In this document: positions 14,764 through 56,842 of the stretch, in pieces | How the letters are laid out: every line of letters begins with the position of its first letter | How positions within the stretch are numbered: position 1 is the stretch's first letter | Virus record (IMG/VR): IMGVR_UViG_3300006056_000027 | Coordinates: 56,648 to 120,647 of that record | Strand: one strand, 5' to 3' | DNA: 64,000 bases | Source of the DNA: a virus | Taxonomy: Duplodnaviria > Caudoviricetes | Position numbers and translations under genes: made by a program | Notes under the pieces: generated by a model | What the model was told of the DNA's origin: nothing | What the model saw: only the letters and a program-made list of their open reading frames with translations | Databases searched by the model: none

Positions 14764-17700
14764 GTCACTCTTATCCATATTGCTGCAACAGTGTATGGTT
14801 GCATGTTATTATGCGCAGCTCCAGACCCAGAAGAGCTAGTAGTAAGTGTGGCAGTAGACGTTATTGCGTTACCACCACCACTTCCGTCTTGACCAACGTA
14901 TGTCATTCCGTTAACCCCATTAAAAGTATGAGTATGTGGTGTTAGCTCTGAAAGCGTAAGTGTGTGCGAATACTCTCCTGCGGATGCACCATTTACGAAA
15001 GTCCTAGATTCCATGTTGGAGTCAGTATATTGCCCGCTGCCTATAATAGTTTTCCCTTCTGCAAAAGGCGACCAGGTTCCAAATGCATGATTGCCAAATG
15101 GTCCGCTTTGTAGTCCTGGATTCTGCTGATTGATTTGATTTGAATATATTGTTCCAATAGGATATATAGCCTTTAATAACGATAATCTCAAAACTCCTTT
15201 TATTTCATTTATAACAAACTCTCTATTTACTGCATCCTTAGGATTAGTAATAGCCGCTACTGGAACAATATCGTAGTCATACGGGAGGTCTTCAACTTCT
15301 AGGTTTCTAATATAGCCATTGCCACAGTTGATAGGATTGCCGCCAGCCATTTCAAGTGTGTCATATATCTTTGTTGGTTCTCCGCCAAATCCAAGAACTG
15401 TTTCACCGTATGAGGTAAATTTACCATTAGCTCTTATGTCGCCATTAATTGTTGCATTTCCAGTAGTTTCTATTTCACCACAACTAATTTTGTTAGTAGT
15501 CGTAAAGTTTGTATCAATAACCAATGAATGAAAAACTGCGTTACCAGTAATTGTTAATGATGTTCCATTTATAATGTTTGCATTAATAATAGAGCTAGAT
15601 GTAACTGTTCCGCTTACTGTTATTTCATTTGCTGTAATTGCATTATTAAAGAATGTATTGTCAGAGAATGTAACTGGTTGTGTAAATTCGGATGATACAT
15701 TTGACTGGAATGATCCAATATTTAAAAGTGTGGATCCATTAATAGTATTGGTAGAAGTAGCATCGCCAGCTGTTATGCCTTTTGATATAATTACTGTTCC
15801 GCCAATTGTTGTGTTGCCGCCAATTGTTGTGTTGCCACCTATTGTTGCTGTTCCTGTAACATTTAAGTTGGTCCCAACTGATAGGGCACCATTTGCCTCA
15901 AGTGAAGGTCCAGAGATAGCCCCGTCTACACTTAGGCTGCCACCTAACGTTGTATTACCACTAACGATTAGAGTGTTGATTGTTGCAACAGCTGTGATTG
16001 CTACATCGTCATTAAATGCAATTGAATTACCGAAGATTACATTACCATAGAAGGTAGATGTCGAATCTAGGTTTGTTGTGAACGATTCAGATATAACAAC
16101 TTCTGTAGCTGTTACTTTGTCAAATACCACATCACCAGCAAACGTAGATGTTCCAGAGATGTTTAGATTGCCAACGCCAGTAATATTTTTAGCTTTAATG
16201 TCTGAATAAACAACATTGTTAAAGTCTATATCATTACCCTGTGTGAAGAATACGCCATTAGGAGATTCAACTACCAAAGCATTTCCTGGATATAGGGCAT
16301 TAGAAGATGTTGCAAATATATTTATTGGCCCACCAAATGCTATACCATTTCTAATTGTGCCGTCACTCTTGTTGAGAGTTGTACTATTTAATATAGCGGA
16401 CTTAGCAAAAACGCTAACTCTTGGCCACTCTGTAAGATTATCTATTCTTGTTTCTTCATTCGACTGGAATGAATACTGAACACCATCTTCTTCTTGAATA
16501 CTATCAGTTGGCTTAATTAAGTATAGTCCACCATCTGTAATCTCAATGAATCCGTTATTATTACTTAGGGATGCCGCTGAACCATTTTCCGCTGATGCAT
16601 ACAATGTTAAATATCTGCTTGCATCTTCTTGGAAGTTTAACCCTGTTAATCTACCAGTATTTCTAATATCTAAAGTAAAGTTAGAAACGTATACGCATTT
16701 ATTATCCACTGTTGTGAAATAGGAACTGTTTGGAGCTAGACTTGTTCCGAATAGAATCTTAGATCCTTCCTCTAATGCAAGTGTTTTAACTGTTAAGTTA
16801 TCTATTGTAGCTTCTTCTGATTCAATATTTAGAGAAGAAATAATCCTAGATAGTCCATATGATGAAGTTATTACAAGATTGTTACTGATTGCGGATAGAG
16901 AAATTACGCCAAGCTGAATAGATCCATTTACTGGGAGCGTCAGCTTATTGTTAATTGTTGCAAAATTAAAGTTTAACGAGCCACCCTTAATGTCGTGTAA
17001 TGTTCCGTTTAGGTCACCGAATGTCGTTAAATGCGGATCATTAAGGGCTGGTACGGCTTTCTTATTAGATGTAATAAACAGTCCATCATTCTTATTTGCA
17101 AGATTATGATTATTAATTCTTAGCCCATAGTCGTAGTCATCTGAGTTATAAGATATGGATACGCCATTAGCTGTAGACGCTACATTAAGATCTTCTTCTG
17201 TATATCTTCTTTTTACAACATGACCAGAGTCAGTTGAGCCGAAGATAAGAGAGTAGGAGTCATCATCTGCATTATTAAATAAGTTATTATCACTTTGAGA
17301 TGAGATAAGAACGTCCCCAACAATCGCATTGTTTAATGTTGCTGGATCTTCCGTGTAGCCTTCTCTGTTGAAATAGTTTGGGTGGTCATTACCTGGAATT
17401 GAAGACTTGCCATACTTAACATTAGTCCTAATTCCTTTTACAATTAAATCTAATAGGTTTGCATGTGACAACGGTGTAGAAATATCGCTTCCATCATGAC
17501 TGTGAGTCTGCATAGTTCTAAGCATGACTTCAACATATTGCCACAAGGACATGTTTGCAATTGATATAACAATAATGTCTGTTGCAAGATTAATAGTATC
17601 CGATGTTGCAATTTCATAAATATTATTAGCAACAATATAAATTGATTCTGAATCTATTTTTACATACGTATCATTTCCAGAATCGTATTTGTAGGCACTA

Positions 17701-18428
17701 ATATATTCCTTTGGACACACAATGTTGCCGCTACCATCTATAAATTGTTGCAAGTAGTCACTTAGAACAATGTCGTATGCGCCATCAAGATCGGTATTAA
17801 CGTTATGCCCATTGGCAGTTCCGACTGATACTCTAATTCTTCCATTTACTTCTAATGTAAGTGTTGGCTTATTTAAGCTGTTTACTGTATTAGGATTAGG
17901 AATTACGTTTGGCATGTAGCCATTATCCAAACCTTCAACTGTAGGATAGTTACCACTATAGGTGATTGAGAATGGACTTGTTGGTGGAGTTTGGAATATT
18001 AACTCTCGATTAGTTACGGTAAAGTCATTAACATTAAGTAGCTCTTCTGGTGTTGCAACTAGATTCCAGAACGATGTTGAATTTACGCCATCATCAATTG
18101 TGAAGCTTGCCCCAATATCTGGAACGAGTGTAAGTGTAAATGTTTTATAATTTGTTAGAACTCCACTATCTGTGAAGCTGCTAAACGATTGACCGAATGG
18201 TGCCGCTGGATCATTCTTTCTTGATCCTATATCTGTGGCAATACTATTAGTGAATTTAGTATCGTCAAATTGATAATCACCAAGTCCATACAAGTTACCA
18301 ATTGCATCGCCTACTTCGTTTAGGGAAGTCTCAATACCGTAAGCAATGCTTAGCATGTTTTCTTCTGATACGAATCCATCCACAGTTACTACTGGTGGTA
18401 GATTGAAGTCTTGTGTTAGCTGACTCAT
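14760..18428 (-). CDS. Tail fibre / baseplate fibre with gp10-C-like C-terminus
   Basis: Central beta-helix-like repeats (TIGGNT, LxVxG). C-terminal AIYPIGTIY...NPG...FGTW...GEYSHTLTLSELTPHTH...AHNNMQPY...WIRV is characteristic of T4 gp10/gp12-like tip domains. Confidence 0.8.
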   Translation of the reverse strand: MSQLTQDFNLPPVVTVDGFVSEENMLSIAYGIETSLNEVGDAIGNLYGLGDYQFDDTKFTNSIATDIGSRKNDPAAPFGQSFSSFTDSGVLTNYKTFTLTLVPDIGASFTIDDGVNSTSFWNLVATPEELLNVNDFTVTNRELIFQTPPTSPFSITYSGNYPTVEGLDNGYMPNVIPNPNTVNSLNKPTLTLEVNGRIRVSVGTANGHNVNTDLDGAYDIVLSDYLQQFIDGSGNIVCPKEYISAYKYDSGNDTYVKIDSESIYIVANNIYEIATSDTINLATDIIVISIANMSLWQYVEVMLRTMQTHSHDGSDISTPLSHANLLDLIVKGIRTNVKYGKSSIPGNDHPNYFNREGYTEDPATLNNAIVGDVLISSQSDNNLFNNADDDSYSLIFGSTDSGHVVKRRYTEEDLNVASTANGVSISYNSDDYDYGLRINNHNLANKNDGLFITSNKKAVPALNDPHLTTFGDLNGTLHDIKGGSLNFNFATINNKLTLPVNGSIQLGVISLSAISNNLVITSSYGLSRIISSLNIESEEATIDNLTVKTLALEEGSKILFGTSLAPNSSYFTTVDNKCVYVSNFTLDIRNTGRLTGLNFQEDASRYLTLYASAENGSAASLSNNNGFIEITDGGLYLIKPTDSIQEEDGVQYSFQSNEETRIDNLTEWPRVSVFAKSAILNSTTLNKSDGTIRNGIAFGGPINIFATSSNALYPGNALVVESPNGVFFTQGNDIDFNNVVYSDIKAKNITGVGNLNISGTSTFAGDVVFDKVTATEVVISESFTTNLDSTSTFYGNVIFGNSIAFNDDVAITAVATINTLIVSGNTTLGGSLSVDGAISGPSLEANGALSVGTNLNVTGTATIGGNTTIGGNTTIGGTVIISKGITAGDATSTNTINGSTLLNIGSFQSNVSSEFTQPVTFSDNTFFNNAITANEITVSGTVTSSSIINANIINGTSLTITGNAVFHSLVIDTNFTTTNKISCGEIETTGNATINGDIRANGKFTSYGETVLGFGGEPTKIYDTLEMAGGNPINCGNGYIRNLEVEDLPYDYDIVPVAAITNPKDAVNREFVINEIKGVLRLSLLKAIYPIGTIYSNQINQQNPGLQSGPFGNHAFGTWSPFAEGKTIIGSGQYTDSNMESRTFVNGASAGEYSHTLTLSELTPHTHTFNGVNGMTYVGQDGSGGGNAITSTATLTTSSSGSGAAHNNMQPYTVAAIWIRVT
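15799..15852. repeat. 18-bp coding tandem repeat, 3 units
   Basis: CCGCCAATTGTTGTGTTG twice exactly, plus the degenerate unit CCACCTATTGTTGCTGTT; encodes TIGGNT-type hexapeptides in the fibre. Confidence 0.85.
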
Positions 18429-31033: not shown

Positions 31034-34000
31034 TTAGTATCTTTGTTCTCGTTTATCTCTTATGTTGACATTGGTTCTACTACCACCTTTGTCACCAAAT
31101 AATGTTCTTTGTAGATTTGAAACTTTTTGACCGTCTCGTTTTGATTGGCCGTTGATATTAGTTGTTTGTCCGTATCCAGACTTTTTATAGGTAGGTGCAT
31201 TCTCGGATTGCAATGGACCAAGTATACCATCGCTTGTTGAGAATGGTACAGCTTCTTTTGTCATCTCTGGTGTTTCAGCTCCTACGAACATAGCCGTTGC
31301 AGCAAGTGCAGCAGCACCAACACTTAGTGGCATTCTATTTTTATACATATTTCTTTTAGCGGCATGAAATATATCAGATCCTCTTTGGCCAATACTCTTA
31401 ATTCTAGCTTCAGTATTAGCTGCTAATTCTTCAGACTCTATCATGTTTGCATTTGCCATAGTTTGCAAATACTCAATCATCTTATCGAATGAATGCACAT
31501 CTCTAGCGTCTTTAATTCTTGCACCAGATCTTTCTATTTGATGAGCAAACTCTACAGTTCCTTCGATTACGTCAGAAATACCTTGATTGTAATTCTTCAT
31601 AATATTGTCAGCTAAATCAATATGTCCTTCCGCTCTCTTACCTTCTGCAAATGATTTTACTTTATTTCCAAGCAAGTTTTCTAGAGCCTGTTTAGTTTGT
31701 TCTCTATACTCTCTTGTATTTCCACCTAGTAATTTCTTATAGGCACTTTGTAATGTTTCAATTTCTGAAACACCCATAGTTCTTCTTATATCTTCATTTG
31801 ATCTATGAGCTGACTTAATTAGACTTTCTGTAATGTTATGGATTACTGTTCTTCCAGTAATACTTCTAGACATTCTTTCTTCTGCAGATAATGTAGTATC
31901 ACTATCAAGCCTATGAATTAACATATCCGTCATATTCATTGCAAGGTAAGTTGCTGGTGCCGCTAAGATCTTTCTTTGTCTTCCTTTAAATGAAGATGTA
32001 GCTTGGTCTGCGTAATATGCTGCGGCTGAATTGTAATCGCCTAAGAATGATTTAGGATTGATTGCGCCATTCTTTTGTTTAGATGCCATAGCATCCATTA
32101 AATGTTGTGACTCATCAAACGCTTTATTTTGAGTGGCCATCATAGCTTCAAACATTTTCTTATGTTCTGGATTCTTAAAGTCTATACCTGTCACCCTAAT
32201 AGTGTCATAGTCATAGTCGGTAAATTGGCCTTTTTCAAAGATGTTTTTATTGCTGTTATGAGCAAACCCAACTTCGTCCTTGCCTAATTGTGCTGAAGGA
32301 TCAAAGTATGCATCACCACTAATAATAGAGAAGGCGCCTTGTGATGGTTCACGAGTCCACATATTTCTAAGCGGCCTTATGTTGCCCTTCTTATCTTTAA
32401 TCATGGCCTGCTGAATGCCACCATGACCGACATCTTCCCAATGAATGCTCTTGCTATCAATACCCATTCTTTCTGCAAGGCCGTATATTGTTGCTTTAGA
32501 ATAAGCAGCGCCAGCATTCTTCGCTGCACCACTTTCCATGAATGATGCAAAGTTTCCGCCAACACTTCTAGCTCTCATAAATGAGCTACCATCTACAGTT
32601 GACTTAGAAGCAGCCTTAGCAATATTGCCATCCCCTTTAAGAAGTCTAACGTGCATCTCTTCAACTTGTGAAAGTACATCCATATATCTAGCAGCATATG
32701 CCTTCTTATGAGCTGGTTCAGCATTGATATATTCTAAGTCTGCCTTGATTAAATCTCTTCTCTTTTTGTCTAGCTTACTAAGTATGTCTGCTTCGCCAAC
32801 TTGTAAATGTCCAGTTCTATTAGTAGTTAAAAAGGATATTGGCACACTTTTAATTTTGCCACCCTTCTTGCCATATTCTTCTGGAGTTGACAGGTTGTAG
32901 GACAGGAAGTCTCCTTGAGCGGTTAACGCGCCTTTAAGTGCATTCTTTCTATTCTCTGGAATAAAATCAAATGAATCAACTATTTGATTACCATGCGTAG
33001 CTTTAATATTGTCAGGTATTTCCTTATCAATAGCAGCCATAGACTGAATCATTCTTAATTCAAATGCTGCATCAGCACTAGGTCTAGTAATTACACCAAG
33101 CATGTCATCAGTCCATCCAGAAGCTTTTAATTGCTTTCTTTCTAGCCATGACATTGAACCAACGTTTCCGATACCATGCAATCCTTCTCCTAGGTCAGCA
33201 ACAACTCTGGTTTGTAATGCTGCTACATCTGACATTGACTTAACATTTCTATCAATTACACTACGTAATGCATTTTCAGCAACATCTCTATTCTCAACTA
33301 ATAGTCTTCCGCCGCGAAGATTATCTAAATCCTGTAAGCCTTTTGTATCATTGTTTTTAGATGCAAGGTTTCTTAGCGTTACAAACAGATCAGAATTGCC
33401 TTTAAAGTCCATCTGAGACTGAATGAATATAGATGCCTTGGTTTTAGATAGCTCGTCGCTTTTCGCATCCTGGAGTATCTTAACGGCATTCCCAAATAGT
33501 CCTTTCTCATTAAGCTTGTTGGCATCTGTAAGAGTTTGTATAAGCTTGTTGTGGTCATATAGTGCATCAGCTCCAGAGTCTTTTGCTCCAAGCATAATAT
33601 CGCCAGCTATCCCAAATCTATTTACAAGATGCTTTGCAGCGCCATCTATATTTCCAGATGTCATTAATGAATTGATTTGTAGTTTTGCAACATCAGCATT
33701 TGCTGTATAGCCTTTTAGTGCGTATCTTTTTCTTCTTAATTCTAAGACATAATCTTTGAAGCCTTTAGACTTTTCATCAATTGAATATCCAGAAGCACTT
33801 GAGTCGAATGAAATAATACCTGACCTTCTTAGGTTCTCCATTGTTGATATGGCTTTAAACTGGCTATCTGTAACTGATGTGTAACCAGCTTTAGAAGATG
33901 TACCAAATAGTTTTAACCATCTTTGTATTGATGCGTCAAATGATGCTTCTACGTTTATTTTTAATGCAGAGTTGTTTGTCCAAGCAGATTTAATTATTCC

Positions 34001-35809
34001 ACCTGTGTAAACATTTCCAATCCTTGATTCCTTGCCAAGCTTATCAAATCCTACGACGTCATTTGCTCCAAGTTTAATATTCTCAAGCATTGCCTGTCTC
34101 TTGGTTAAGTCACTTTCCGACATAGCTTTTGCAAGTTCTTCATGGATAATTGGATAAAGACCATTCTCTCCTTTTGCTATTTCTAAAGAGATGTGTTGCT
34201 TCTCTGACAGTCTAGCAAGAGATTCTTCGTTAATAAGACCAGCACCATCTGCAATACTTACATGTCCTCCAAATAATTTAGAGATATAACTACTCATTCC
34301 TGAATCAATATCTACTCTTGAAACTATCTTTTCATTACCAGCACCGAGTCTGGCCCCAGGCTCTTCAATGTATCCTCTGCCAGTTACGACATCTGTAGCA
34401 CGTTCCATCGTCGGTACAAAGGCATCATCCAAGGCTAGGTTCTTAAAGTCCAATGCAGAGAAGTATCCAACAGTGTTTAGTCCTTGTCCAGCTAATGGAT
34501 TATACCCTTCGTGCGCGAACTCATTGCCTAGTCTTCTTAATAGGTTGCTCATCTCTGATGCGCTACCGTTCTCAGAAATAGACTTAATTTTGTTTAATTT
34601 CATTAAGCCGTCGTCTTTAATTTCAATAGCGTCTTCAAAGTATACGGATGCACCAGATAGCCTTCTCATATATTCTGAAAACTTACTATCAGGCATCGAA
34701 GTAAGATCTCCTAGTTTGTTATAGGCAAGTGGAGAGTCTGCAGCAACATACTGCATTTGCTTCATTGTTTTTTCATACCAGTCCGCTATATTAACCTTGC
34801 CATCTTTCTTTTCCATGAAGCCTATAATGTCTTCTGGAGCCATCTTCGTCTTAATAAGTTCAGATATATTATCTGATCCCATAATGTCTTTTAGTAGTGG
34901 TTCATTAAAATATGCTTGGCCATTGGCGTAGAGTCTTCCAAATGGATTAATTGGCTTTGATGCGTATAGCGTATCTCCAATTTTTGCAAAGCGAGCACTA
35001 CCACCTTTGTTTTGAACTGTTAGTGGAATCTCATGCGCTACACCATTTTGTTGAGCTATTAATGTGCTTCCTTTCACAACAAAATCTGTACCATGAAGGC
35101 CATGCAATAACAGTCCTGCTTTTCTAGTAGCTTCTTCTTTGCCATATCCTAATTGATTAATAAAATGACTAGACAGTATATTGAGACTATTTGCCTTATT
35201 TGAGGTTGAGTTTATATGTACTGTTTTAAGTGTTTCTTGGAACTTATTATCTGCGGCATCTACTAATTGGATTTTAGTATCTAACTTTCTAGCATTACTA
35301 ATTGCCGATATAGCTTTTTCTTCTGTGTCAGATCCCATAATAAACTTAGAAAGATTATCTAGGTAATCATTAGAATTAGATCCAAGCTCTGCTGGTAGCG
35401 TAACACCTCTAGCGCTAGCAAGTGTCAATACGTTGTGTTGCAATATTTCTATTCTTGATTTAAGCCTATCAACGTGATTAATAGCTCTATCTAGCTTCTT
35501 GGCATTGTTTCTAGTTTGTTTCCATCCACCTATTGCAACTACAAGATTCTCAGCTTTCTTTAACTTGGAATTAAGTCCTGTAACCTTATCTGATAAGTTT
35601 TGACGATCAAATTGTTTAGACATAAGCATAGAGCTGTCATATTTGAATACAGCATTCTTTTTAGAAAAAGGAGATACCACTTTTGAGTAAGAAGAATAAT
35701 ACGCAGTAGCAGCTCCTATACCGCTACCTAATATTCCAGCGATAGGATGATCAAGTGGATCTTGTGATAGGCCACCTATAGCAGCCCCTGTTAATAATTT
35801 TAATGACAT
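31034..35809 (-). CDS. Putative single-subunit two-barrel (fused beta/beta'-like) DNA-dependent RNA polymerase, probably virion-associated
   Basis: Collinear motifs: IADGAGLI, KLFGTSSKAG, ERKQLKASG...ML, LLKGDGNIAKAASKSTVDGSS, TREPSQGAFSI, TDYDYDT, TESLIKSAH. Details in the findings. Confidence 0.78.
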   Translation of the reverse strand: MSLKLLTGAAIGGLSQDPLDHPIAGILGSGIGAATAYYSSYSKVVSPFSKKNAVFKYDSSMLMSKQFDRQNLSDKVTGLNSKLKKAENLVVAIGGWKQTRNNAKKLDRAINHVDRLKSRIEILQHNVLTLASARGVTLPAELGSNSNDYLDNLSKFIMGSDTEEKAISAISNARKLDTKIQLVDAADNKFQETLKTVHINSTSNKANSLNILSSHFINQLGYGKEEATRKAGLLLHGLHGTDFVVKGSTLIAQQNGVAHEIPLTVQNKGGSARFAKIGDTLYASKPINPFGRLYANGQAYFNEPLLKDIMGSDNISELIKTKMAPEDIIGFMEKKDGKVNIADWYEKTMKQMQYVAADSPLAYNKLGDLTSMPDSKFSEYMRRLSGASVYFEDAIEIKDDGLMKLNKIKSISENGSASEMSNLLRRLGNEFAHEGYNPLAGQGLNTVGYFSALDFKNLALDDAFVPTMERATDVVTGRGYIEEPGARLGAGNEKIVSRVDIDSGMSSYISKLFGGHVSIADGAGLINEESLARLSEKQHISLEIAKGENGLYPIIHEELAKAMSESDLTKRQAMLENIKLGANDVVGFDKLGKESRIGNVYTGGIIKSAWTNNSALKINVEASFDASIQRWLKLFGTSSKAGYTSVTDSQFKAISTMENLRRSGIISFDSSASGYSIDEKSKGFKDYVLELRRKRYALKGYTANADVAKLQINSLMTSGNIDGAAKHLVNRFGIAGDIMLGAKDSGADALYDHNKLIQTLTDANKLNEKGLFGNAVKILQDAKSDELSKTKASIFIQSQMDFKGNSDLFVTLRNLASKNNDTKGLQDLDNLRGGRLLVENRDVAENALRSVIDRNVKSMSDVAALQTRVVADLGEGLHGIGNVGSMSWLERKQLKASGWTDDMLGVITRPSADAAFELRMIQSMAAIDKEIPDNIKATHGNQIVDSFDFIPENRKNALKGALTAQGDFLSYNLSTPEEYGKKGGKIKSVPISFLTTNRTGHLQVGEADILSKLDKKRRDLIKADLEYINAEPAHKKAYAARYMDVLSQVEEMHVRLLKGDGNIAKAASKSTVDGSSFMRARSVGGNFASFMESGAAKNAGAAYSKATIYGLAERMGIDSKSIHWEDVGHGGIQQAMIKDKKGNIRPLRNMWTREPSQGAFSIISGDAYFDPSAQLGKDEVGFAHNSNKNIFEKGQFTDYDYDTIRVTGIDFKNPEHKKMFEAMMATQNKAFDESQHLMDAMASKQKNGAINPKSFLGDYNSAAAYYADQATSSFKGRQRKILAAPATYLAMNMTDMLIHRLDSDTTLSAEERMSRSITGRTVIHNITESLIKSAHRSNEDIRRTMGVSEIETLQSAYKKLLGGNTREYREQTKQALENLLGNKVKSFAEGKRAEGHIDLADNIMKNYNQGISDVIEGTVEFAHQIERSGARIKDARDVHSFDKMIEYLQTMANANMIESEELAANTEARIKSIGQRGSDIFHAAKRNMYKNRMPLSVGAAALAATAMFVGAETPEMTKEAVPFSTSDGILGPLQSENAPTYKKSGYGQTTNINGQSKRDGQKVSNLQRTLFGDKGGSRTNVNIRDKREQRY

Positions 35810-38800: not shown

Positions 38801-39495
38801 TCTGATAAAGCAGCGTTATAGAATCTAGAAGCATCTTCTACTCCCATAACATTTCTAAACTTTTCATATACTCTGTTTAGGAATGGAGAGCTTTTTTCAC
38901 CAAGACCTTTATCTACATCTGGAGACAGGGAAACGATTCTTGCATGCTCAAGTAAGGTTGATGACATATCTGCCGAGTATAATTTACCAGATTGATATAC
39001 GGCACCACTTCTAAATACTTCATCTATTACTTGTGGATGTAGATTATTACCCTTCTCTGCAAATAGTTTTCTAAAATATTCTTCATCTAGAAACAATTGC
39101 GTTGCAGTTATGTTAATTGGAACTGTGTCTTTTGGAAGATTAGTTACCGATAACAGACTTGATGTATGAAAGGTTCTTAGGATTTTAAATGGAGATAGTT
39201 CTTCAGCACCTTTAGCGAATGCAAGGCTTAGGTCACCAAGAGTAACCTTTCTTTTAATAGCAAGATCTGACCATGCCGTATCATTATATCTAATATAATC
39301 ATTTAAGATGTTTAACTTAAACAACCTAGACGCAGCAGACTGACCTATATCTGTATTTAATAAATAGGCAGCACCAGCCATAGATGCAGAAACGCCACCT
39401 ATTTCTAAGATGGCGTTATTACTTTTCTCTTTTCTTGCTCTCTCAAATTCCTCGTAGGTATTCGCAGATGAGCTAACATAGTTTGCTTCATTCAT
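35809..39495 (-). CDS. Tape-measure-position protein / putative ejected membrane-channel protein
   Basis: 1228 aa directly after two chaperone-like genes; several Gly/Ala-rich hydrophobic segments in the N-terminal half. Confidence 0.5.
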   Translation of the reverse strand: MNEANYVSSSANTYEEFERARKEKSNNAILEIGGVSASMAGAAYLLNTDIGQSAASRLFKLNILNDYIRYNDTAWSDLAIKRKVTLGDLSLAFAKGAEELSPFKILRTFHTSSLLSVTNLPKDTVPINITATQLFLDEEYFRKLFAEKGNNLHPQVIDEVFRSGAVYQSGKLYSADMSSTLLEHARIVSLSPDVDKGLGEKSSPFLNRVYEKFRNVMGVEDASRFYNAALSENGKLGVIAGKSQSDMMLGWSRAFGRLSIEPGFKIFDKPLDFFAELIDKTGLPQKYNFLHGVRDSLSLGLGTKGDYTKSVPRSFAMSAGNIAKASLMAGAGLSILNEVVKSVADQSSPFDKGILPGLATGYTTARVGVASAWSDNFQGYKERQEYYAPGSTSVIALAGFPLAGAMFGGTVGYSTRLASTAIRGFAETEKIFARETESSLVNKVLLRDPADGVKLTKVKKLAALGAIVGAIPALPFLPGALVGESSEQLRKEYSGEEDVAIRSTRFWTSGGTEYEGGKIKYFTKSWYSQLMNDAETVGKYGDQETKSDLNPFLHPFDYLRNPYRYEELNQERSPYPVWGMSVSHAGVFGKIFEGTIGRVIKPDLVNERLSEYVDGGSLDSEQGVSLKQKVTDEEASLVQEGKMLAPENAKMNLNRELADGSYNALTDFAGLKGWAVSLMNDYTHTGVGDSGLQLARSGESNNIARDLLERNLGGMGPIGESLRRFIPTNSGSIVDSANPLRNLMPEWLPHDPNNYWQDFSIGDPYSKVDRGYYRLPGEGYSELFPELKGIDPKDYPDIFKYKILSDVALGSDEYYQYKDIMEARSVQGQLTDYEQGMYSTIKDQESQRSIQKRFATPLTKEDMQDAGFVDTALSSLWSVSSRLAEAPTETLTFFRPAAKFIHQRTATEDYIATQIEGSDVGMWTKPYDHFLKPFANKLDPSNDMPEEAQERNAIDTYFDRLEYMKYRNLYKESVASGDGNAHEYKKKYQATVTGALTTGLDENMEVTRAYIALPDRQKAYFAAFSGATSSEERSQIVDMVPTDIANLYSKLWKRRDAIAGASSPEAQTAAVMNIVSNEESDLISDNRGLYEQYKRSNEKESSSFSEFVQDKEVESYVKRTTGVPDRNFAGWDPRIDMKDIKLQTLSIGKEDVREYGFWDSDENRLRRLSIVQQEKQVTGQIEQIKNSIKEEKRSSASIKSELYKRGVDVDSVQFHISKTDNLNFNIGA

Positions 39496-40009
39496 TTTGA
39501 ATTGTTTCTATTGGATTAACTTCTTGCTGGAACGTTGTCAAGCATATTGTATAAAGCCTAAATAGTTCATTAACTGGAAACTGTTCAACTTCTCTAAATG
39601 GAGTAGACATAAATCTTGATACTATAGCTTGCATAGAATGCAGGACATTTATCTGTGCCTTGCATTCTTCTATATAGCCTAGAACGTTTTCCACATACTG
39701 CATGCTCTTGCCAACTATTGCGGTTGCCAAGGTAGATACAATACCAGCTTCCATTCCGTCCCAATCAACCGCATCGGTTATGCCAATAAAGCTTTCAAAT
39801 GTGTTGTTGACAATATCTTGTTCTATTTCTATTGATGCAACTGGTTCATTAAGATCAAATAGGTTTACCCTTTCTAATTCTTTAACAGTTAACAACCTAG
39901 CTATGCAAATCGGTTCATCATATACAATACCATTAATAGTAACGCATTGCCCTAAGAGAGGAATTGATACTCCGCTTATGCCAGCAGAAAGAATATTGTC
40001 TAGCTTCAT
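39488..40009 (-). CDS. Putative tail assembly chaperone
   Basis: ARLLTVKELE motif, acidic, second of two chaperone-sized genes after the tube genes. Confidence 0.5.
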   Translation of the reverse strand: MKLDNILSAGISGVSIPLLGQCVTINGIVYDEPICIARLLTVKELERVNLFDLNEPVASIEIEQDIVNNTFESFIGITDAVDWDGMEAGIVSTLATAIVGKSMQYVENVLGYIEECKAQINVLHSMQAIVSRFMSTPFREVEQFPVNELFRLYTICLTTFQQEVNPIETIQNE

Positions 40010-40425
40010 TAGATGACCTTAATTAAGTTCAATGCCATTTGATCCGAAACAAATCCCGATCTGTATAGTATCTGTTTTGCTAAAGTAGGAACAACTCCAG
40101 CATCTGATACAGATACATTCTCTGCCGATACTTTTGGCCAAAGAACACATCTACGAACAACGGTTTCTTCGTATAACATTGGATTCTTTACGATTCCGTT
40201 ATTAACCATTTGCTTATATTCTTGCCTGTTAATAGTTCTCCATACATAAATAGAGTCGTCTCCAAGGACAGATGATACAAAGATTTTGCCGTAGTTATCT
40301 TTCCATGCTTCTACAGTTAGTTCATCTGGTGCATCTTCGTATGTTGACAGAACTGCTAATAGCTCAGCTAGATTGTCGTCCTTTACATTAACCGCTTCTT
40401 CTTGTGTTTCAATTGTGTCTGACAT
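40009..40425 (-). CDS. Tail assembly chaperone
   Basis: WKDNYGKIF...YVWRTINRQEYK...CVLWP...AGVVPTLAKQILYRSGF; acidic N-terminus; canonical position. Confidence 0.65.
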   Translation of the reverse strand: MSDTIETQEEAVNVKDDNLAELLAVLSTYEDAPDELTVEAWKDNYGKIFVSSVLGDDSIYVWRTINRQEYKQMVNNGIVKNPMLYEETVVRRCVLWPKVSAENVSVSDAGVVPTLAKQILYRSGFVSDQMALNLIKVI

Positions 40426-42504: not shown

Positions 42505-44670
42505 TTAAATATCGTATGATAATTTAACGATATTATTAATGTCTCTCAGTTCAAACACTGGAACTACTGTATAAGGTATTGTAACCCCGAATACGCTAGT
42601 TGGAATAACTGTAGCCACGTACTTCTTAATCATTCCAGCTCTTGCGCCTTCTTGGAATACGCTATCAACAGCAGTCTGCATAGCAGCCAATTTGATCTCG
42701 TCGATTCCTTTACCTAGGTAAACATCAAGTCTAGTACGAATTCTGTTTGTCAATTCTCTGATGATAATTGATGTAGAAATGTAGTCATAGTCTGAATTAG
42801 GATTTGTAGCTAACTCACCTGAACAACATACAACGCCTCTTGTTTTCTCTTGGAATACAACATAACCAACTAATGACAATTCATCTAGTTTAACTTTCTT
42901 GATTTGGAAAGGTAAAGATACTCTTGGTAGCAATTCGTTTGTTGTTGAATTACCTGGAGTAACTGTTGTCACTAAGCCAGTATACATAGCGGCAGCGTTA
43001 GTAGTTGAAGCAATTAAACCTGAAGAGCTAATTGTAGGAACACTAATAACTGCAGGTACAACTGAAAGGAATTTACCTAAATCAATTAATGCACCATTAC
43101 TATCTGTTTGTGGAATGCCGTCTGGGAAACCAGAATCTGTATGGTAGAAACCACCAACTCTTGTTGTAGAACCAGCCATGAACTTGTTACCAAGTAAACC
43201 AGTACCATTCCCAATGATAGCTCCTTCAATGTCAGTCTCTGGAAGAGTACCAATCCAGGCAGCGATCTTAGCATTTGTAAATGCAACAGGACCTGATGTA
43301 CCGATAGAGCAAAGAACAAATCTTTCATTCTCAGTGATAGAGAACGCAAACTCACCTAATTGATGCACAAAGTTAACTTCGTTAAATTTCTTGTAGATAA
43401 TAGGTTGACCACTTGTGTCAAGATCAGTATCAACTGTAATAACTGGTTTAGCATAAACAACTTCAATGTTACCTACGCCAATAGTAGCGTTAAGAGTAAC
43501 AAGATCTGTTGTAGCATCGAATGTATAAGCATGTGCAACTCCACCAACCGATACAGAAATGATTTGAGTATCAGCACTTGCAGCACCAGTTAATGCGTAA
43601 TCTACAGATGCACCTGTACCATCAAATGTTTGTGTTGCTTTGTATAGAGTTTTTGATCCTGACCATTCGTAGGTTACATCGCCATTAGCGTCTGTTCCTT
43701 TTAGTAAGTAGTCAAGTTTATCAGTAGCAACTGATCCATCTGCTACGTTTGGAGCGTCAAGAATAGCTTTGTCTACGTAAACTTCAGTAGCGATTGTTGT
43801 TTCTAAATCTGTATATGCCTTATCTAAAAGTTCATAATACTTCTTATATGAAGCACCAATGTTGTTTTCACCAGCAGAATATGATGCACCTGCAACTGTT
43901 ACTGGACGATTGAATTTGATTTCAATTGTTGCCAAGTTAGCTGGAGCCACTGCGAATGTGATTTCATCTGCACCAGCAGTACCAGAACCAATACCTACTG
44001 TGTAAGCTGTTGTTAATGTTCCGTTTACTTTGATGTATTCGATTACTGTTGATGCGCTTGATGTTCCAGGAAGATCAAAGTCAGTTAATACAGCGTTACC
44101 AACTTGGTTGGAAATAACATCTGCTTTTAATGCAGCTAAAGCACTTTCTAGTAACACTGGTGATGTAGGAGTACCTACTCTATATGCAAAGTCTACATCG
44201 AATCCTTCAACTGTAATCTTACCTAGGTTAACTAATGCACCAGGGATATTAGAATAAACAATTTTTGATCCTTCAAATACAACTAAGCAAGCATCAGCAG
44301 CGTTATTTGGTTGAGGACCTAGATAGATTGAATACTTAGAACCAGCTGTTGATGATTGTTCAACAGTAGCAATAGATGTGTCATCGCCAAATAAGTTTTT
44401 AAGCTCTGCGGCTTTTCCACCAATTCTATAAAGCACTACATTCTTAGCGCCACCTAGTTTGATCTCATTTGCTTTTTTAATTATAGGAGAATCTTCTCCG
44501 TATGTTTTTCTAGCCAGATTGGAATCTCTTACAAGCACTTGCTGATCAGTAGGACCTGAGTAAGCTGTACCTATAACAAGAACAACGGGACCACTAATGG
44601 TATCGTCTACAATCAAGTTACCATCTAGCAGTTCTAGTCTATTAGCTGGTAAGTTTCTATATGTTGGCAT
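42505..44670 (-). CDS. Contractile tail sheath protein
   Basis: N-terminal MPTYRNLP...VLVIGTAYSGP...GGAKNVVLYRIG; C-terminal LDELS..GYVVF...YLGKG...VPVFELRDINNIV. ATG 44670 has a GGAG RBS (ORF track start is 44685). Confidence 0.88.
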   Translation of the reverse strand: MPTYRNLPANRLELLDGNLIVDDTISGPVVLVIGTAYSGPTDQQVLVRDSNLARKTYGEDSPIIKKANEIKLGGAKNVVLYRIGGKAAELKNLFGDDTSIATVEQSSTAGSKYSIYLGPQPNNAADACLVVFEGSKIVYSNIPGALVNLGKITVEGFDVDFAYRVGTPTSPVLLESALAALKADVISNQVGNAVLTDFDLPGTSSASTVIEYIKVNGTLTTAYTVGIGSGTAGADEITFAVAPANLATIEIKFNRPVTVAGASYSAGENNIGASYKKYYELLDKAYTDLETTIATEVYVDKAILDAPNVADGSVATDKLDYLLKGTDANGDVTYEWSGSKTLYKATQTFDGTGASVDYALTGAASADTQIISVSVGGVAHAYTFDATTDLVTLNATIGVGNIEVVYAKPVITVDTDLDTSGQPIIYKKFNEVNFVHQLGEFAFSITENERFVLCSIGTSGPVAFTNAKIAAWIGTLPETDIEGAIIGNGTGLLGNKFMAGSTTRVGGFYHTDSGFPDGIPQTDSNGALIDLGKFLSVVPAVISVPTISSSGLIASTTNAAAMYTGLVTTVTPGNSTTNELLPRVSLPFQIKKVKLDELSLVGYVVFQEKTRGVVCCSGELATNPNSDYDYISTSIIIRELTNRIRTRLDVYLGKGIDEIKLAAMQTAVDSVFQEGARAGMIKKYVATVIPTSVFGVTIPYTVVPVFELRDINNIVKLSYDI

Positions 44671-44700
44671 TAATTTTTTCTCCAATTAGATTGTTTAGAT

Positions 44701-46571: not shown

Positions 46572-47650
46572 TCTGCTACCACCTCATATCTTGCTCCTAA
46601 TAGTATTCCTTCTCTATTTGTTACAGAGAATCTAATTGATCTACTAGATAGGATCTTATAAGTTATAAGATATCTTTGTGATGGATTGTAATAACCTAAT
46701 GACTCAAGTATGTAATTACCATACGCTTCTGATAAGTCTATTTTAAACGAATTAGGAGTAACTGATTCTGCTTTTATGTCTTGTGAGAAGGTTAGTATGA
46801 ATGTGGATAAACCAATATAAGACAATGAAACAGTTGTTGCAGTTGGTGACTGAACTACTGGAGCTGGCGTCTGACCAAATACATTGTTTTGATAAAAGTT
46901 TAATATATCTGTGTATTCTAATCTTTGAGATGGATTGTCTTCAAGCTTGATAACATCTGCATCAATGAATGTAGATATTTCCTGAATCTTATTGCCGCTT
47001 AATCTAATACAGTCATCAAGAACTACTCTAAACTTCTCTCCTGAAATAAACGGGAATGATGAATTAAACTTAATACTTGTTGATGGGTTAAGAACTAGAT
47101 TTGTAGATAAGATATCAATTTCAAGATTGGAAGAGATTACAACACTATTCTTGGATACGTTAACCCTAATTTTGTGCTGACCATTGCTTAATACGGATGT
47201 TTGAATTACGTCAATATCGTATTGTGCTATTTCATTAATCAATACAGATGATTCTGTAATTACTCTAATGCTGGAATTGCCTACGCTAATAGGTTTAGTC
47301 TTTGTGTAGTATTGTGGCTGTAGTCCTTTCTCAATAAACAACATGTATTTTGAGTTTGTGTACAACTTGCTAGATGGGGTTATTTTAAGTGAGTTATCTA
47401 AATCGTTAAATGTGAATGTGTAGTCTACAAGACCGAATCTTTCTTTAACGTATTGGATTTGTTTATAATTAGGATCGCCAACCGATGGCCAAACATGATC
47501 ATCATCTATTCTTGACAATGATACATATTGTTCAATGTCCTCAAGATCTGGTTTACCTGAAAACAGAATAGATACGCTCTCCTCAATTGGAAGAGCGTTT
47601 AATTGATGCGTATTGTTTTTTATTCCTATAACATCAATCAATATAGTCAT
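46568..47650 (-). CDS. Virion protein with Ig-like domains
   Basis: VSILFS...LKITPSSKLYTNSKYMLFIEKGL and ILTFSQDIKAESVT resemble Big_5/SbsA-type Ig domains. Confidence 0.5.
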   Translation of the reverse strand: MTILIDVIGIKNNTHQLNALPIEESVSILFSGKPDLEDIEQYVSLSRIDDDHVWPSVGDPNYKQIQYVKERFGLVDYTFTFNDLDNSLKITPSSKLYTNSKYMLFIEKGLQPQYYTKTKPISVGNSSIRVITESSVLINEIAQYDIDVIQTSVLSNGQHKIRVNVSKNSVVISSNLEIDILSTNLVLNPSTSIKFNSSFPFISGEKFRVVLDDCIRLSGNKIQEISTFIDADVIKLEDNPSQRLEYTDILNFYQNNVFGQTPAPVVQSPTATTVSLSYIGLSTFILTFSQDIKAESVTPNSFKIDLSEAYGNYILESLGYYNPSQRYLITYKILSSRSIRFSVTNREGILLGARYEVVAE

Positions 47651-47652
47651 GG

Positions 47653-48138
47653 TTAAACTTCTGTAAGTGCAGCGATAATTGTCGCTCTATTTTTATTTGC
47701 TTTTTCTAGCTCTAATACTGTTTCAGTATCTACTTCGGAAAGTTTAGCTGATCTAATCTTTTCTAATACTTGTTTCACGGATCCATCAAGGATGCCTGCG
47801 ATGTCTACTTGCACTTCTTCTTTTTCATCTTCTTCGTACTCCACATCTAAAACTTCTGCTACTACTTCTTCTACGAATTCTACGACCTTCATAACGTCTT
47901 GTATGAATCCGTACTGTTTTTGTAATCCAACTCTGGTAAGAGGATCTTTAACAAAGCGTAATAGGTCTTCGGCTTGAATATCTGCCTCAACAATTCCGCC
48001 AATAATAGAAGATACTAATCCTTGAATGAAACCATCAGGCCTGTCTGATAGATCTACTTCTGTAGAGTTATTCTTTGTTAGCACTAAATCTTCTAAAAAG
48101 TAGAATGCTGATTTAATAAGTGCGACATTAATTTTCAT
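47653..48138 (-). CDS. Head-associated hypothetical protein
   Basis: Follows the capsid gene; acidic linker and C-terminal LELEKANKNRATIIAAL helix pair. Confidence 0.5.
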   Translation of the reverse strand: MKINVALIKSAFYFLEDLVLTKNNSTEVDLSDRPDGFIQGLVSSIIGGIVEADIQAEDLLRFVKDPLTRVGLQKQYGFIQDVMKVVEFVEEVVAEVLDVEYEEDEKEEVQVDIAGILDGSVKQVLEKIRSAKLSEVDTETVLELEKANKNRATIIAALTEV

Positions 48139-48157
48139 ATTTATATTCCCTAGACTT

Positions 48158-48186
48158 AAAAAGGGGGCGCTAAGCCCCCTTCTTTT
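48158..48186 (-). terminator. Intrinsic terminator after the major capsid gene
   Basis: Minus strand reads AAGGGGGC-TTAGC-GCCCCCTT-TTT. Confidence 0.85.
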
Positions 48187-48205
48187 GTTTGCGCCTTAAA
48201 CGTTA

Positions 48206-49435
48206 TTAAGGTTTTTGTACGATTGGAGCTAAACCGCTAATTGTAGCCTGTGGAGGCAGAACTAGAGCATTAGGCTCAACACTGATATTTCTTGCAATCG
48301 AGATGCCTTGGCCTTGGTTATACAATGCAAAACCATAACGCTCTCTCATCTTGATCTTATAGATATCAGTTGACTGATCTTTCCATTCTTCCATGTGTGG
48401 ATCTTCACTAACAACCATAGCACCAACTTGGTTGGTATCAATCATAATGATTGAAGTTGTTTTGTTTAGTGGATCAAACGGCACGTGTGCAGTTGGGATC
48501 ACTGTAATTCCACCAAATGGGAACATTGAAGGGAAGCCCATTTTAGATTGCTGTGTTCCTTCTCTTTCTTCTTTTGTTGGGTTAGTAACTGTAGGACCAG
48601 TTAACTTACCTGCTGATTTCCATGCTTGGCTCATTGATGGATACACGTTTGCTGGGGATCCATTGAACCAGTTGCCTAGCCCACTACCAGTTTCAAGAAC
48701 GATAGAACGCATGTTCGGATCTTTTACAAACATTGCCCATGTTAAAGGATGACATAGAACTACGTTTGGTGTGAAGCCTCTTTCTAGAGTCTTAGCATAC
48801 ATATCGTAGAAATCATCTACTGTCATTGAACCATTACCAGCACCAGCTAAGTTACGACCAGTTGTACGTCCAATTTCAGCTGTTGTTGGGTTTAAGTTAT
48901 CGAAGATAACAACGCCAGCAGCATTAAGCATGTTGAAAATCAATCTTTCTTTGTGTCTAGCCAGAGCACGTGAAGCTTGTCTAACATGTAGACCGATAAC
49001 ATCCCATTGTGATTGGTTAATCATTTCTTCAGATACTTTGATCGCGATACCGTGTTTACCGATATTCGCAGTAGCTGTACCACCACCCTTTTGGATGCTG
49101 AATTCTGGATATTCTTGACCTTCAGACATTGATAGATCAGCAGGACCAGTAGCACCAAGTGTACCGAAGTTCACCTGTGTACCATATCCGTCCATACGGA
49201 TAACATCAATTAGTCTTGTACCAATAAGGATTGGTTCAATAGCTTCTTGGATAACTTCAGTAATAACACGTTTGAAAGCCATTGGAGCACTAGGAGTTGT
49301 GATGGTATCTCTTAAAGCGACTTTAGCGCCAACTTCTGATACACCACTATTTCTAAATGTAAAGGCAAGATCATTAATCTCGTCTTTCATTTTTAATTCT
49401 TTTTCGCTCCAAGGAGTTTGGTGAATTCTTGACAT
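48206..49435 (-). CDS. Major capsid protein (HK97 fold)
   Basis: EGQEYPE...KHGIAIKVSEEMINQSQWDVI...ALARHKE...PNVVLCHP...IKMRERYG; strong RBS and terminator; follows protease and decoration genes. Confidence 0.9.
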   Translation of the reverse strand: MSRIHQTPWSEKELKMKDEINDLAFTFRNSGVSEVGAKVALRDTITTPSAPMAFKRVITEVIQEAIEPILIGTRLIDVIRMDGYGTQVNFGTLGATGPADLSMSEGQEYPEFSIQKGGGTATANIGKHGIAIKVSEEMINQSQWDVIGLHVRQASRALARHKERLIFNMLNAAGVVIFDNLNPTTAEIGRTTGRNLAGAGNGSMTVDDFYDMYAKTLERGFTPNVVLCHPLTWAMFVKDPNMRSIVLETGSGLGNWFNGSPANVYPSMSQAWKSAGKLTGPTVTNPTKEEREGTQQSKMGFPSMFPFGGITVIPTAHVPFDPLNKTTSIIMIDTNQVGAMVVSEDPHMEEWKDQSTDIYKIKMRERYGFALYNQGQGISIARNISVEPNALVLPPQATISGLAPIVQKP

Positions 49436-49473
49436 AATATTTAATATTCCTTTCTAGTTATTTTATTTGTCTA

Positions 49474-50418
49474 TTAACGATTTAAGCAGATTCTAACTAG
49501 GCCATACCCGCCAGAATATGTAATGGTGTCAGACTTACCTACTGTAGCAGTACCAGGCATTGCCTCTAATACAGAAACTCCGTTTTGCGCAGTTCTTACT
49601 CTGTCTAGTAATTGGAATGGACCAGATCCTCTTACGGATGTTACTTGCCCTAGGACGTCTTCTTCGCTGAATGAACCATAATCATAACCTGAAACAACGA
49701 AGTTTGAGTTCAGATCATAAGATACAAACATACCAGGCTTAACAGTTCCAGCAGCAGCAACGCATGCAGCAATACCTGGGAATGGAGCAGCTTTGTATGT
49801 AGCTGTGTCTTGCACTAATGGCAATTCAATTTGGTAGTATCTTAAGAACCCAATACGTGATTGTAGGTTATAGTTAGATCTATTGAATGTAGCTGGGTTG
49901 ATACCGTCACCACCTGGATGTGGCCAGCAATCCATATATGTAATACCAATGGCACTAGATATAGTGTTCAATTGAACAAGGGGAAGAGCTGTAATATTGA
50001 AGAATGATTTAACAACTGGTTCGCCAACAGTAACTGCTGCGCCTGCTGCATTCTTAACACCATTTTGTACATCTACTGCTGTATATTTGTCAATAGTAGT
50101 TAGTGCATCACCAAGAGCAAGTCCAGCGCCAATGTTTGCGCCTGCATCAGCTGCAACTTTATAAGCTGCTGCTTGAAGTCTTAGACCAGCAGGTACTACA
50201 TACCCAGACACGTCAAAGCCAACTACTTTACCTTGTGAAAGAACTTTAAACTCTCTATTGTATGCGTCATATCTTACAAGAGGTAGATATGGTGCTATTT
50301 GGAATTCCCCAGCAGGACGGTATCCTTCTGAGAATTCAACGTTAGGGGTAATATGACCCCAATCATCCCATTCCTTATAGCCTTGAGTTGGGTTGATTGA
50401 AAATTGGTTAGCTGCCAT
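49474..50418 (-). CDS. Putative capsid decoration/stabilising protein
   Basis: Ala/Gly-rich 314 aa between scaffold and capsid; GKVVGFD..GYVVPAG and VKPGMFV beta-tulip-like segments. Confidence 0.55.
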   Translation of the reverse strand: MAANQFSINPTQGYKEWDDWGHITPNVEFSEGYRPAGEFQIAPYLPLVRYDAYNREFKVLSQGKVVGFDVSGYVVPAGLRLQAAAYKVAADAGANIGAGLALGDALTTIDKYTAVDVQNGVKNAAGAAVTVGEPVVKSFFNITALPLVQLNTISSAIGITYMDCWPHPGGDGINPATFNRSNYNLQSRIGFLRYYQIELPLVQDTATYKAAPFPGIAACVAAAGTVKPGMFVSYDLNSNFVVSGYDYGSFSEEDVLGQVTSVRGSGPFQLLDRVRTAQNGVSVLEAMPGTATVGKSDTITYSGGYGLVRICLNR

Positions 50419-50420
50419 GT

Positions 50421-56408: not shown

Positions 56409-56842
56409 TATTCAGCCTCTAAAGATATATTAACTGATAGTTTTGTATTTGATGACAAAATAGGTTCTATTAATATCCATACTGGTATCAAATGATTTTG
56501 TACAGGATTTAATACAGTAGCTTCATTGTAGTAAACCAGATTATCAAAATCTGCTACAACTGGCTTAACTTCATTAATTAAAACCTTTGTTCCGATATAT
56601 AACTTGTCATCAACAGAGGCATCTAGTTTTATCTTGATATATGATAACGGAGCTACTGTGTCTGCAACTAAATAATATTTTTTAATTATAGGTAGCATAG
56701 GCGCAATAGAGCACTCATTAATATCTAGTGACGATAATTCTAGGATAGTTTCTGTTTCATAGTCGTAGTAGCACAGTCCGATGTCCGAAACTGTGCCTCC
56801 TGTTATCATTGCATCAGATGCAGTGTTTATTATATTTATCAT
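56408..56842 (-). CDS. Hypothetical protein
   Basis: 144 aa, starts immediately after the TerL stop. Confidence 0.55.
   Translation of the reverse strand: MINIINTASDAMITGGTVSDIGLCYYDYETETILELSSLDINECSIAPMLPIIKKYYLVADTVAPLSYIKIKLDASVDDKLYIGTKVLINEVKPVVADFDNLVYYNEATVLNPVQNHLIPVWILIEPILSSNTKLSVNISLEAE

Follow-up and report, generated by a model that had tools for sequence, protein, structure and literature searches.

In our own reading, phages have few single-chain two-barrel RNA polymerases (RNAPs), and each of those studied, namely YonO, the crAss-like gp66, and gp96 and gp64 of phage P23-45, changed views on how far this ancient enzyme can be pared down and how it is delivered. The crAss-like enzyme, gp66 of phage phi14:2, is reported as capsid or muzzle cargo. 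In the Thermus siphovirus P23-45, gp96 is a virion RNAP that is fused to the tape measure protein and transcribes the pre-early genes (PMC10770324; PDB 8H2M/8H2N), and among jumbo phages two-barrel RNAPs have been described in group 1 and in two group 3 phages (Iyer et al., 2021). Here, we analyzed a stretch of 64,000 nucleotides from a contractile-tailed wastewater phage (Duplodnaviria; Caudoviricetes), positions 56,648 to 120,647 of IMG/VR record IMGVR_UViG_3300006056_000027 and hereafter the window, in which an uninterrupted minus-strand open reading frame (ORF) of 1591 codons at 31034-35809 encodes a protein designated P0001. A first-pass annotation had proposed that P0001 is a divergent single-polypeptide two-barrel RNAP, with the beta-like part before the beta'-like part, inside the tail module of a myovirus. 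This proposal is upheld by our analysis because the catalytic residues are conserved, the structural model is confident and the structural matches are nearly all two-barrel RNAPs. We consider it reasonably likely that P0001 is an active single-chain two-barrel nucleotide polymerase, probably a DNA-dependent RNAP, which forms a family of its own, holds a fixed slot in the tail operon, is carried in the virion and is injected.

Active-site conservation and predicted fold of P0001

A word-indexed search of 5.8 billion proteins returned only five matches, with 33-43% identity to P0001. Scoring a profile of P0001 residues 425-1400 against all 1.84 billion representative proteins yielded 82 relatives, 80 of them with E < 1e-10; their lengths are mostly 1500-2400 residues, with extremes of 1241 and 2424 amino acids. 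The family has a member in a cultured phage, gp36 of Acinetobacter phage vB_AbaM_ME3 (ME3), which is 1603 amino acids long, labelled hypothetical, and linked to the family with an hhalign probability of 99.9%. A tblastn search of 50,697 phage records with P0001 and ME3 gp36 gave no member besides ME3, and single distant family members used as queries matched no IMG/VR loci.

Ruprich-Robert and Thuriaux described eight residues common to all two-barrel RNA polymerases, in QDE-1 numbering D709, R738, K743, R962, P964, D1007, D1009 and D1011, with D837, K979 and K987 of Rpb2 as the counterparts in the beta-like barrel (PMC2919709). The P0001 family has exactly these eight residues in unchanged order, and each of them is kept in 76-79 of 79 relatives, the counts being taken over the aligned full-length members of the 82-protein set. 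K633, R1153, P1155, D1198, D1200 and D1202 are present in all 79, as are K1065, K1244, E1328 and K1332; K640 is kept in 77, and position 521 is Asp in 76 and Glu in 2. S887 (78/79), K1280 (77/79), T1287 (75/79) and H1335 (73/79) are likewise well kept. In a 32-sequence alignment with identity down to 18%, just 20 columns are invariant, and these include D521, G522, K633, K640, R1153, P1155, D1198, D1200 and D1202. The R-x-P motif is kept, the distance from its Arg to the first Asp of the triad is 45 residues in the P0001 family and in QDE-1 alike, and among the variants of the catalytic triad DFDGD itself is present in several members.

Conservation in homologues of D521, K633, K640, R1153 and the DxDxD triad, which the first-pass annotation had named as a check, was thus borne out, and the seven RNAP-like motifs that it had placed along P0001 were each recovered from the ORF translation at the same coordinates (Table 1). 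Judged on sequence, the motif set is more than chance, because the 20 invariant columns include the catalytic residues and the 79 relatives agree. Motif 3 is a plausible equivalent of the beta motif GGQRFGEMEVW, and H1335 may plausibly correspond to the trigger-loop His of cellular RNAPs.

An AlphaFold2 model of residues 425-1400, computed with the 32-sequence alignment as input, reached a mean predicted local distance difference test (pLDDT) score of 83.2 and a predicted template modelling (pTM) score of 0.81, with about 1000 of the 1591 residues of P0001 modelled as a confident globular fold of mixed alpha/beta domains. Foldseek searches of this model against the PDB gave weak E-values (0.004-0.02), yet the top 50 matches were all two-barrel RNA polymerases, namely bacterial beta', QDE-1, the AR9 non-virion RNAP (nvRNAP), vaccinia, Pol I and Pol II. 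A Foldseek-independent structural search of 48,161 PDB representatives ranked QDE-1 (11.5), maize RDR2 (10.6), P74-26 gp62 (9.8) and AR9 nvRNAP (9.6), together with the largest subunits of Pol I, archaeal RNAP, Pol II and vaccinia RNAP. The structural matches cover both halves of P0001, beta-like first and beta'-like second, and the beta' alignments extend across the bridge-helix region to model residue 976. Isolated or designed double-psi beta-barrels (DPBBs) superpose on model residues 650-807 with a root-mean-square deviation of 2.1-2.3 Å over ~86 residues; the DYDYD loop sits in this same barrel, and the triad with its preceding R-x-P is located within the beta'-like barrel of the model (DPBB-A). 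A 42-residue helix at model positions 838-879 stands at the place expected for the bridge helix, and helices at 885-907 and 914-920 stand at the place expected for the trigger loop.

Several defining features of the two-barrel superfamily were found together in P0001: two DPBB domains in one module, in the order beta-like to beta'-like; within the beta-like barrel, D521 as the fourth Asp and K633 and K640 as the basic pair; and, after the catalytic barrel, a bridge-helix-like helix and a trigger-loop-like hairpin with conserved K1280, T1287, E1328, K1332 and H1335. Lack of a pair of double-psi barrels had been named beforehand as an outcome that would speak against the proposal, and paired barrels are present both in the model and in the structural matches.

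In the beta-like barrel (DPBB-B), a beta-rich insertion of ~100 residues separates D521 from the Lys pair, and the connector between the barrels carries a conserved GIGNxGSMSW motif and a switch-2-like KGDGNIAKAASK motif with the invariant K1065. The N-terminal Gly/Ala-rich hairpin is kept in nearly all members, is a hallmark of the family and could possibly serve as a membrane or tail-lumen anchor. Each member also has a hydrophobic segment ~100 residues before its C-terminal end, followed by a conserved tail (in P0001, PEMTKE...QSENA..YKK...FGD...RTN.NIRDKR).

The tail operon around P0001

The structural genes fill the window, which makes up about half of an IMG/VR record 120,647 bp long and ~66% complete by CheckV. 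The minus-strand order starts with terminase, portal and major capsid protein, passes to the sheath and two tube paralogues, and continues with three small ORFs, giants of 1228, 1591 and 2072 codons, and the baseplate genes, wedge included. The ATG of P0001 shares bases with the stop of the 1228-codon upstream giant (TAATG), and just one base lies between its own stop and the hub ATG. Five IMG/VR loci have an identical gene order of sheath, tube, tube, ORF, chaperone, chaperone, 1228-amino-acid giant, P0001, hub and baseplate, and the same order was found in ME3 and in a 183.7-kb contig whose family member, of 1735 amino acids, belongs to a distant subgroup. The P0001 homologue is always flanked by the gp145-like giant and the hub, both in ME3 and in six relatives from metagenomes, and the ORFs at the chaperone position are present in all related loci. 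P0001 is the fastest-evolving gene of the module: its identity values are 33-42%, compared with 53-70% in the neighbouring genes.

The module is of the type of Bacillus phage 0305phi8-36, in which gp143 and gp144 are chaperonins, gp146 is the assigned tape measure and gp147 the hub, and in which mass spectrometry placed both gp145 and gp146 in the virion. P0001 occupies the gp146 slot of this module type; neither gp145 nor gp146 of 0305phi8-36 has a DxDxD motif or matches the P0001 family profile. In blastp, the upstream giant shows 33% identity to ME3_35 over its full length and partial matches to gp145. The hub, homologous to ME3 gp37 and 0305phi8-36 gp147, contains a Pfam SNase domain at residues 1053-1173 and matches phrog_8809 and an endolysin PHROG. 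Its SNase domain stands upstream of the lysin-like region, and this odd pairing of hub and nuclease also occurs in the BtI1 relative of 0305phi8-36 (PMC2147016). A DYDFD sequence at hub residue 432 was rejected as a lead, as it is not conserved in ME3 gp37.

Table 1. Features of P0001 and of neighbouring tail genes, in window coordinates.
Feature	Position	Strand	Residues or basis
Motif 1, SIADGAGLINEE	34223-34258	minus	D521 = 34247-34249
Motif 2, WLKLFGTSSKAG	33884-33919	minus	K633/K640 = 33890-33913
Motif 3, GSMSWLERKQLKASGWTDDML	33098-33160	minus	
Motif 4, LLKGDGNIAKAASKSTVDGSSFMRARSV	32561-32644	minus	
Motif 5, WTREPSQGAFSI	32324-32359	minus	R1153 = 32351-32353
Motif 6, GQFTDYDYDTIRV	32192-32230	minus	DYDYD = 32204-32218
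Motif 7, FKGRQRK... helix	31919-31990	minus	
Motif 7, ITESLIKSAH	31805-31834	minus	H1335 = 31805-31807
N-terminal Gly/Ala-rich hydrophobic hairpin, residues 5-40	35690..35797	minus	consensus GAxxGAY(T/S)QDxxDNP...GxGIGA
DPBB-B, beta-like barrel region, residues ~494-677	33779..34330	minus	holds D521 and K633/K640
Inter-barrel connector, mostly helical, residues 678-1073	32591..33778	minus	secondary structure of model
DPBB-A, beta'-like catalytic barrel, residues 1074-1231	32117..32590	minus	R1153-x-P1155, D1198-Y-D1200-Y-D1202
Bridge-helix-like long helix, residues 1262-1303, KGRQRKILAAPAT...	31901..32026	minus	model and conservation
Trigger-loop-like helical hairpin, residues 1309-1344, ITESLIKSAH	31778..31885	minus	model and conservation
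C-terminal hydrophobic segment (residues 1493-1513) and conserved tail	31037..31333	minus	hydropathy scan, conservation
Tail sheath	42505-44685	minus	
Two small ORFs (173 and 138 amino acids), tail assembly chaperone position	39488..40425	minus	positions match gp143/gp144 and ME3_33/34
Upstream giant, 1228 amino acids	35809..39495	minus	homologue of ME3 gp35 and 0305phi8-36 gp145
Baseplate hub, 2072 amino acids	24814..31032	minus	SNase domain, lysin-like region

Three family members come from contigs that were assigned to bacterial metagenome-assembled genomes (an uncultured bacterium, a Neisseriaceae and a Saccharimonadales); binning has probably swept up phage contigs here, and the assignments do not indicate the host. 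Sequencing runs of wastewater, sludge and freshwater, belonging to 13 studies, contain closely similar DNA. In the remainder of the source record, DNA polymerase III alpha (47205-51628 of the record, plus strand) is split into two ORFs with a 194-amino-acid ORF in between, the former carrying the PHP domain and the start of the NTPase domain and the latter the remainder. The plus-strand half of the record (1-56647) further encodes a reverse transcriptase (1202-2554 of locus L011), a ThiF/E1-like protein, a JAB protein, a TROVE/Ro60-like protein with a VWA domain (locus L010, 7891-9381), an AAA ATPase, a primase-helicase and a cluster of tRNA-like genes, with the T-arm word GGTTCGAATCC at nine places.

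Proposed virion carriage and alternative readings

From the precedent of P23-45 gp96 and crAss-like gp66 and from the gene context, we infer that P0001 is synthesized late, packaged and injected to transcribe early genes, as had been suggested at the outset. The context consists of the fixed place of the gene between virion giants, with abutting or overlapping start and stop codons. P0001 would be made together with the tail proteins, and a few copies would enter the particle, probably inside or next to the tail lumen beside the gp145-like protein; the conserved hydrophobic segments at both termini may help in assembly or in crossing the membrane. Once ejected, either before the DNA or along with it, P0001 would transcribe the first phage genes without host RNA polymerase.

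Several points weigh against such a polymerase. No sequence link from P0001 to a known RNAP family was detected: Pfam (E 0.1), PHROGs and NCBIfam scans returned no family match, a profile hidden Markov model search of PDB sequences gave only a chance match (E 0.3), and hhalign of the family profile against 0305phi8-36 gp99 gave a probability of 0.1%. Virion presence, ejection and polymerase activity are putative, and neither YonO nor 0305phi8-36 gp99 is known as a virion protein. A crude exact k-mer count for a phage-specific promoter, made on the ~66%-complete record, detected only tRNA arms. By our own estimate, a folded core of ~110 kDa should not fit into an ordinary tail-tube lumen of ~4 nm, so that P0001 would have to be unfolded or extended to be housed in the tail. 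In further searches, hhalign against 0305phi8-36 gp146 found nothing, PF05183 (RdRP/YonO-like) had no match in P0001, the source record, ME3 or two other genomes scanned, and ESM Atlas look-ups of the P0001 core and of the 1228-amino-acid neighbour named no family.

Size, position and the lack of a family match would equally suit a tape measure or purely structural tail protein whose RNAP-like motifs arose by chance, but the eight catalytic residues persist in 76-79 of 79 relatives at identities down to 18%, the fold is modelled with confidence and two-barrel RNAPs make up nearly all of the best structural matches, so that this explanation is extremely improbable. P0001 could instead be a tape measure, or an equivalent protein of the tail lumen, into which a polymerase has been absorbed; it would then parallel, in a myovirus, the P23-45 fusion, and its N- and C-terminal parts would do the structural work. 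Such a protein would be at home in the slot of gp146, the assigned tape measure, one gene from the chaperones, and neither P0001 nor its neighbour matches any tape measure family in Pfam or PHROGs; gp146, too, has a hydrophobic segment ~100 residues from its C terminus. However, the confident globular fold takes up most of P0001, which is thus no long, helical, non-globular ruler placed after the chaperones, and with ~420 N-terminal and ~190 C-terminal residues outside its core it does not resemble a tape-measure-fused virion RNAP. Homology of its C terminus to gp146 was rejected, since the alignment scored 6.5 bits and shuffled controls reached 8.2 bits (2000 shuffles). Moreover, the family ranges from 1241 to 2424 amino acids, whereas the helical gp145-like neighbour is constant in length and directly follows the chaperones. 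We regard an absorbed polymerase in a tape measure as quite unlikely. The 1228-amino-acid gp145-like giant is tentatively the better candidate for the tape measure (or an ejection protein), because it stands directly after the chaperone-like ORFs, keeps a steady length of 1228-1276 amino acids across phages of 120-235 kb, and is mostly helical in its low-confidence model (pLDDT 40.5). Residues 120-250 of this giant are modelled with confidence as a small alpha/beta domain, and hydrophobic segments lie at residues 28-46, 393-412 and 458-485. Trp, Pro, Gly and Tyr are frequent in its conserved columns, an unusual trait for a simple ruler protein.

The enzyme could also be a genuine two-barrel RNAP that stays out of the virion, made late and acting in the infected cell, for example in priming or in transcription at a late or very late stage, in which case its place in the tail operon would be regulatory only. 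YonO and 0305phi8-36 gp99 are non-structural two-barrel RNAPs, gp99 having no virion mass-spectrometry note; the virion placement of the P0001 family is argued from gene context; and the catalytic core is predicted to fold as a large globular body. Against this stand the position of the gene, which in phages of 120-235 kb is invariably enclosed by two virion giants whose start or stop codons overlap or abut its own, the conserved hydrophobic termini, which are unusual in a soluble cytoplasmic enzyme, and the inability of a late-only enzyme to start the transcription programme unless it is carried into the next cell. A non-virion enzyme is accordingly unlikely in our judgement, and we prefer carriage of P0001 in the virion. 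A bolder version of virion carriage, possible though rather unlikely, is that in ME3-type phages the RNAP took the tape-measure slot. It would be anchored in the tail tube by its conserved hydrophobic termini and stored there at least partly unfolded, be fired through the envelope when the sheath contracts, and refold and transcribe at the membrane pore, where it would perhaps also help to pull in the entering genome. If true, a myovirus with no second phage RNAP would here have a 'transcribing ejectosome' in its tail lumen.

Contigs covering the P0001 gene are present in three metatranscriptome runs from two studies, although contigs in such runs are no proof of transcription. In two metatranscriptome runs of a single study, contig depth falls about tenfold, from 67-81 to ~5-7, at ~39400-39500, the site of the change from tube and chaperone genes to the giants, whereas a probable DNA library is flat there. 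This is a weak hint that the giant genes have lower RNA levels than the tube and chaperone genes.

Relation to described polymerases

Neither this type of enzyme nor the notion of a virion RNAP carried in the tail is new. What appears to be new is the P0001 sequence family, its position as a separate gene in the tape-measure slot of contractile-tail operons, and its hydrophobic termini. The ME3 genome announcement (PMC5000817) reports no RNA polymerase, ME3 (group 2.2) is not among the carriers in the RNAP census of Iyer et al. (2021), and a 2026 jumbo-phage review does not mention ME3. As far as its text is accessible, the table of phage RNAPs that supplements Chaban et al. (2024) has no ME3, Acinetobacter or Metrivirus entry and no motif variants of the P0001 family. 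A literature search, with thin coverage of subscription journals, found no earlier description of the family. The doubt as to whether the lineage is unreported is answered in part: no report was found and ME3 gp36 is absent from two RNAP censuses, as far as their accessible content goes, although an earlier report may exist.

The family adds 82 representative sequences that profile libraries miss and corrects the annotation of genes that are labelled hypothetical and could be mistaken for tape measures. It also raises the question of how a polymerase core of ~110 kDa could pass through a contractile tail, and since ME3 gp36 comes from a cultured phage, the family is within reach of direct experiment.

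Among cellular enzymes, the eukaryotic RNAi polymerases QDE-1 and RDR2 share ~11% identity with P0001 and differ from it in their biology and by the lack of a PF05183 match in P0001; the stretch from the Asp to the Lys pair in the beta-like barrel spans 112 residues in P0001 and 29 in QDE-1. P0001, YonO of SPbeta and 0305phi8-36 gp99 are all phage single-chain two-barrel RNAPs, and the phage of gp99 shares the tail-module type with P0001. However, gp99 lies in the far right arm beside the terminal repeat, outside the tail operon and without a virion note, whereas P0001 lies inside the tail operon, at the place where 0305phi8-36 has gp146, which lacks DxDxD. The virion RNAP of the crAss-like podovirus phi14:2, gp66 (PDB 6VR4), comprises 2180 amino acids and matches the P0001 model less well than QDE-1 does; no sequence similarity between gp66 and P0001 was found. 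The virion RNAP of N4 resembles our proposal for P0001 in being a giant polymerase that is ejected, with two ejection proteins as partner giants, to start transcription, but it has an unrelated, T7-like right-hand fold and resides in a podovirus capsid.

A parallel in the tail is P23-45 gp96, which makes up the N-terminal 1200 residues of a 5002-amino-acid tape measure in a non-contractile tail and has no clamp (PMC10770324). P0001, by contrast, is a separate 1591-amino-acid gene product of a contractile-tail operon, has an inter-barrel connector of ~400 residues and hydrophobic termini, and shows no detectable sequence similarity to gp96. Unlike for P23-45, the 120-kb record of P0001 (~66% complete) yielded no additional RNAP of the non-virion kind, and none of the unassigned proteins among its other ORFs of at least 250 codons carries DxDxD. 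In ME3, the 798-amino-acid protein A0A172Q0S6 (15456-17876 of locus L024, minus strand) aligned weakly with the polymerase model in Foldseek (E 5e-3, 722 columns) and has no Pfam family; it was rejected as a second RNAP, having neither an acidic triad nor a homologue in the source genome. In the BFVD, a 'minor tail protein' of the uncultivated Siphoviridae sp. ctnpt50 (A0A8S5SD80) matches the P0001 model with an E-value of 9e-8 over ~1086 columns, and the same phage encodes a separate 'RNA-dependent RNA polymerase' (A0A8S5SEF1). These two proteins may represent another pair like that of P23-45, in which case tail-associated two-barrel RNAPs would be more widespread.

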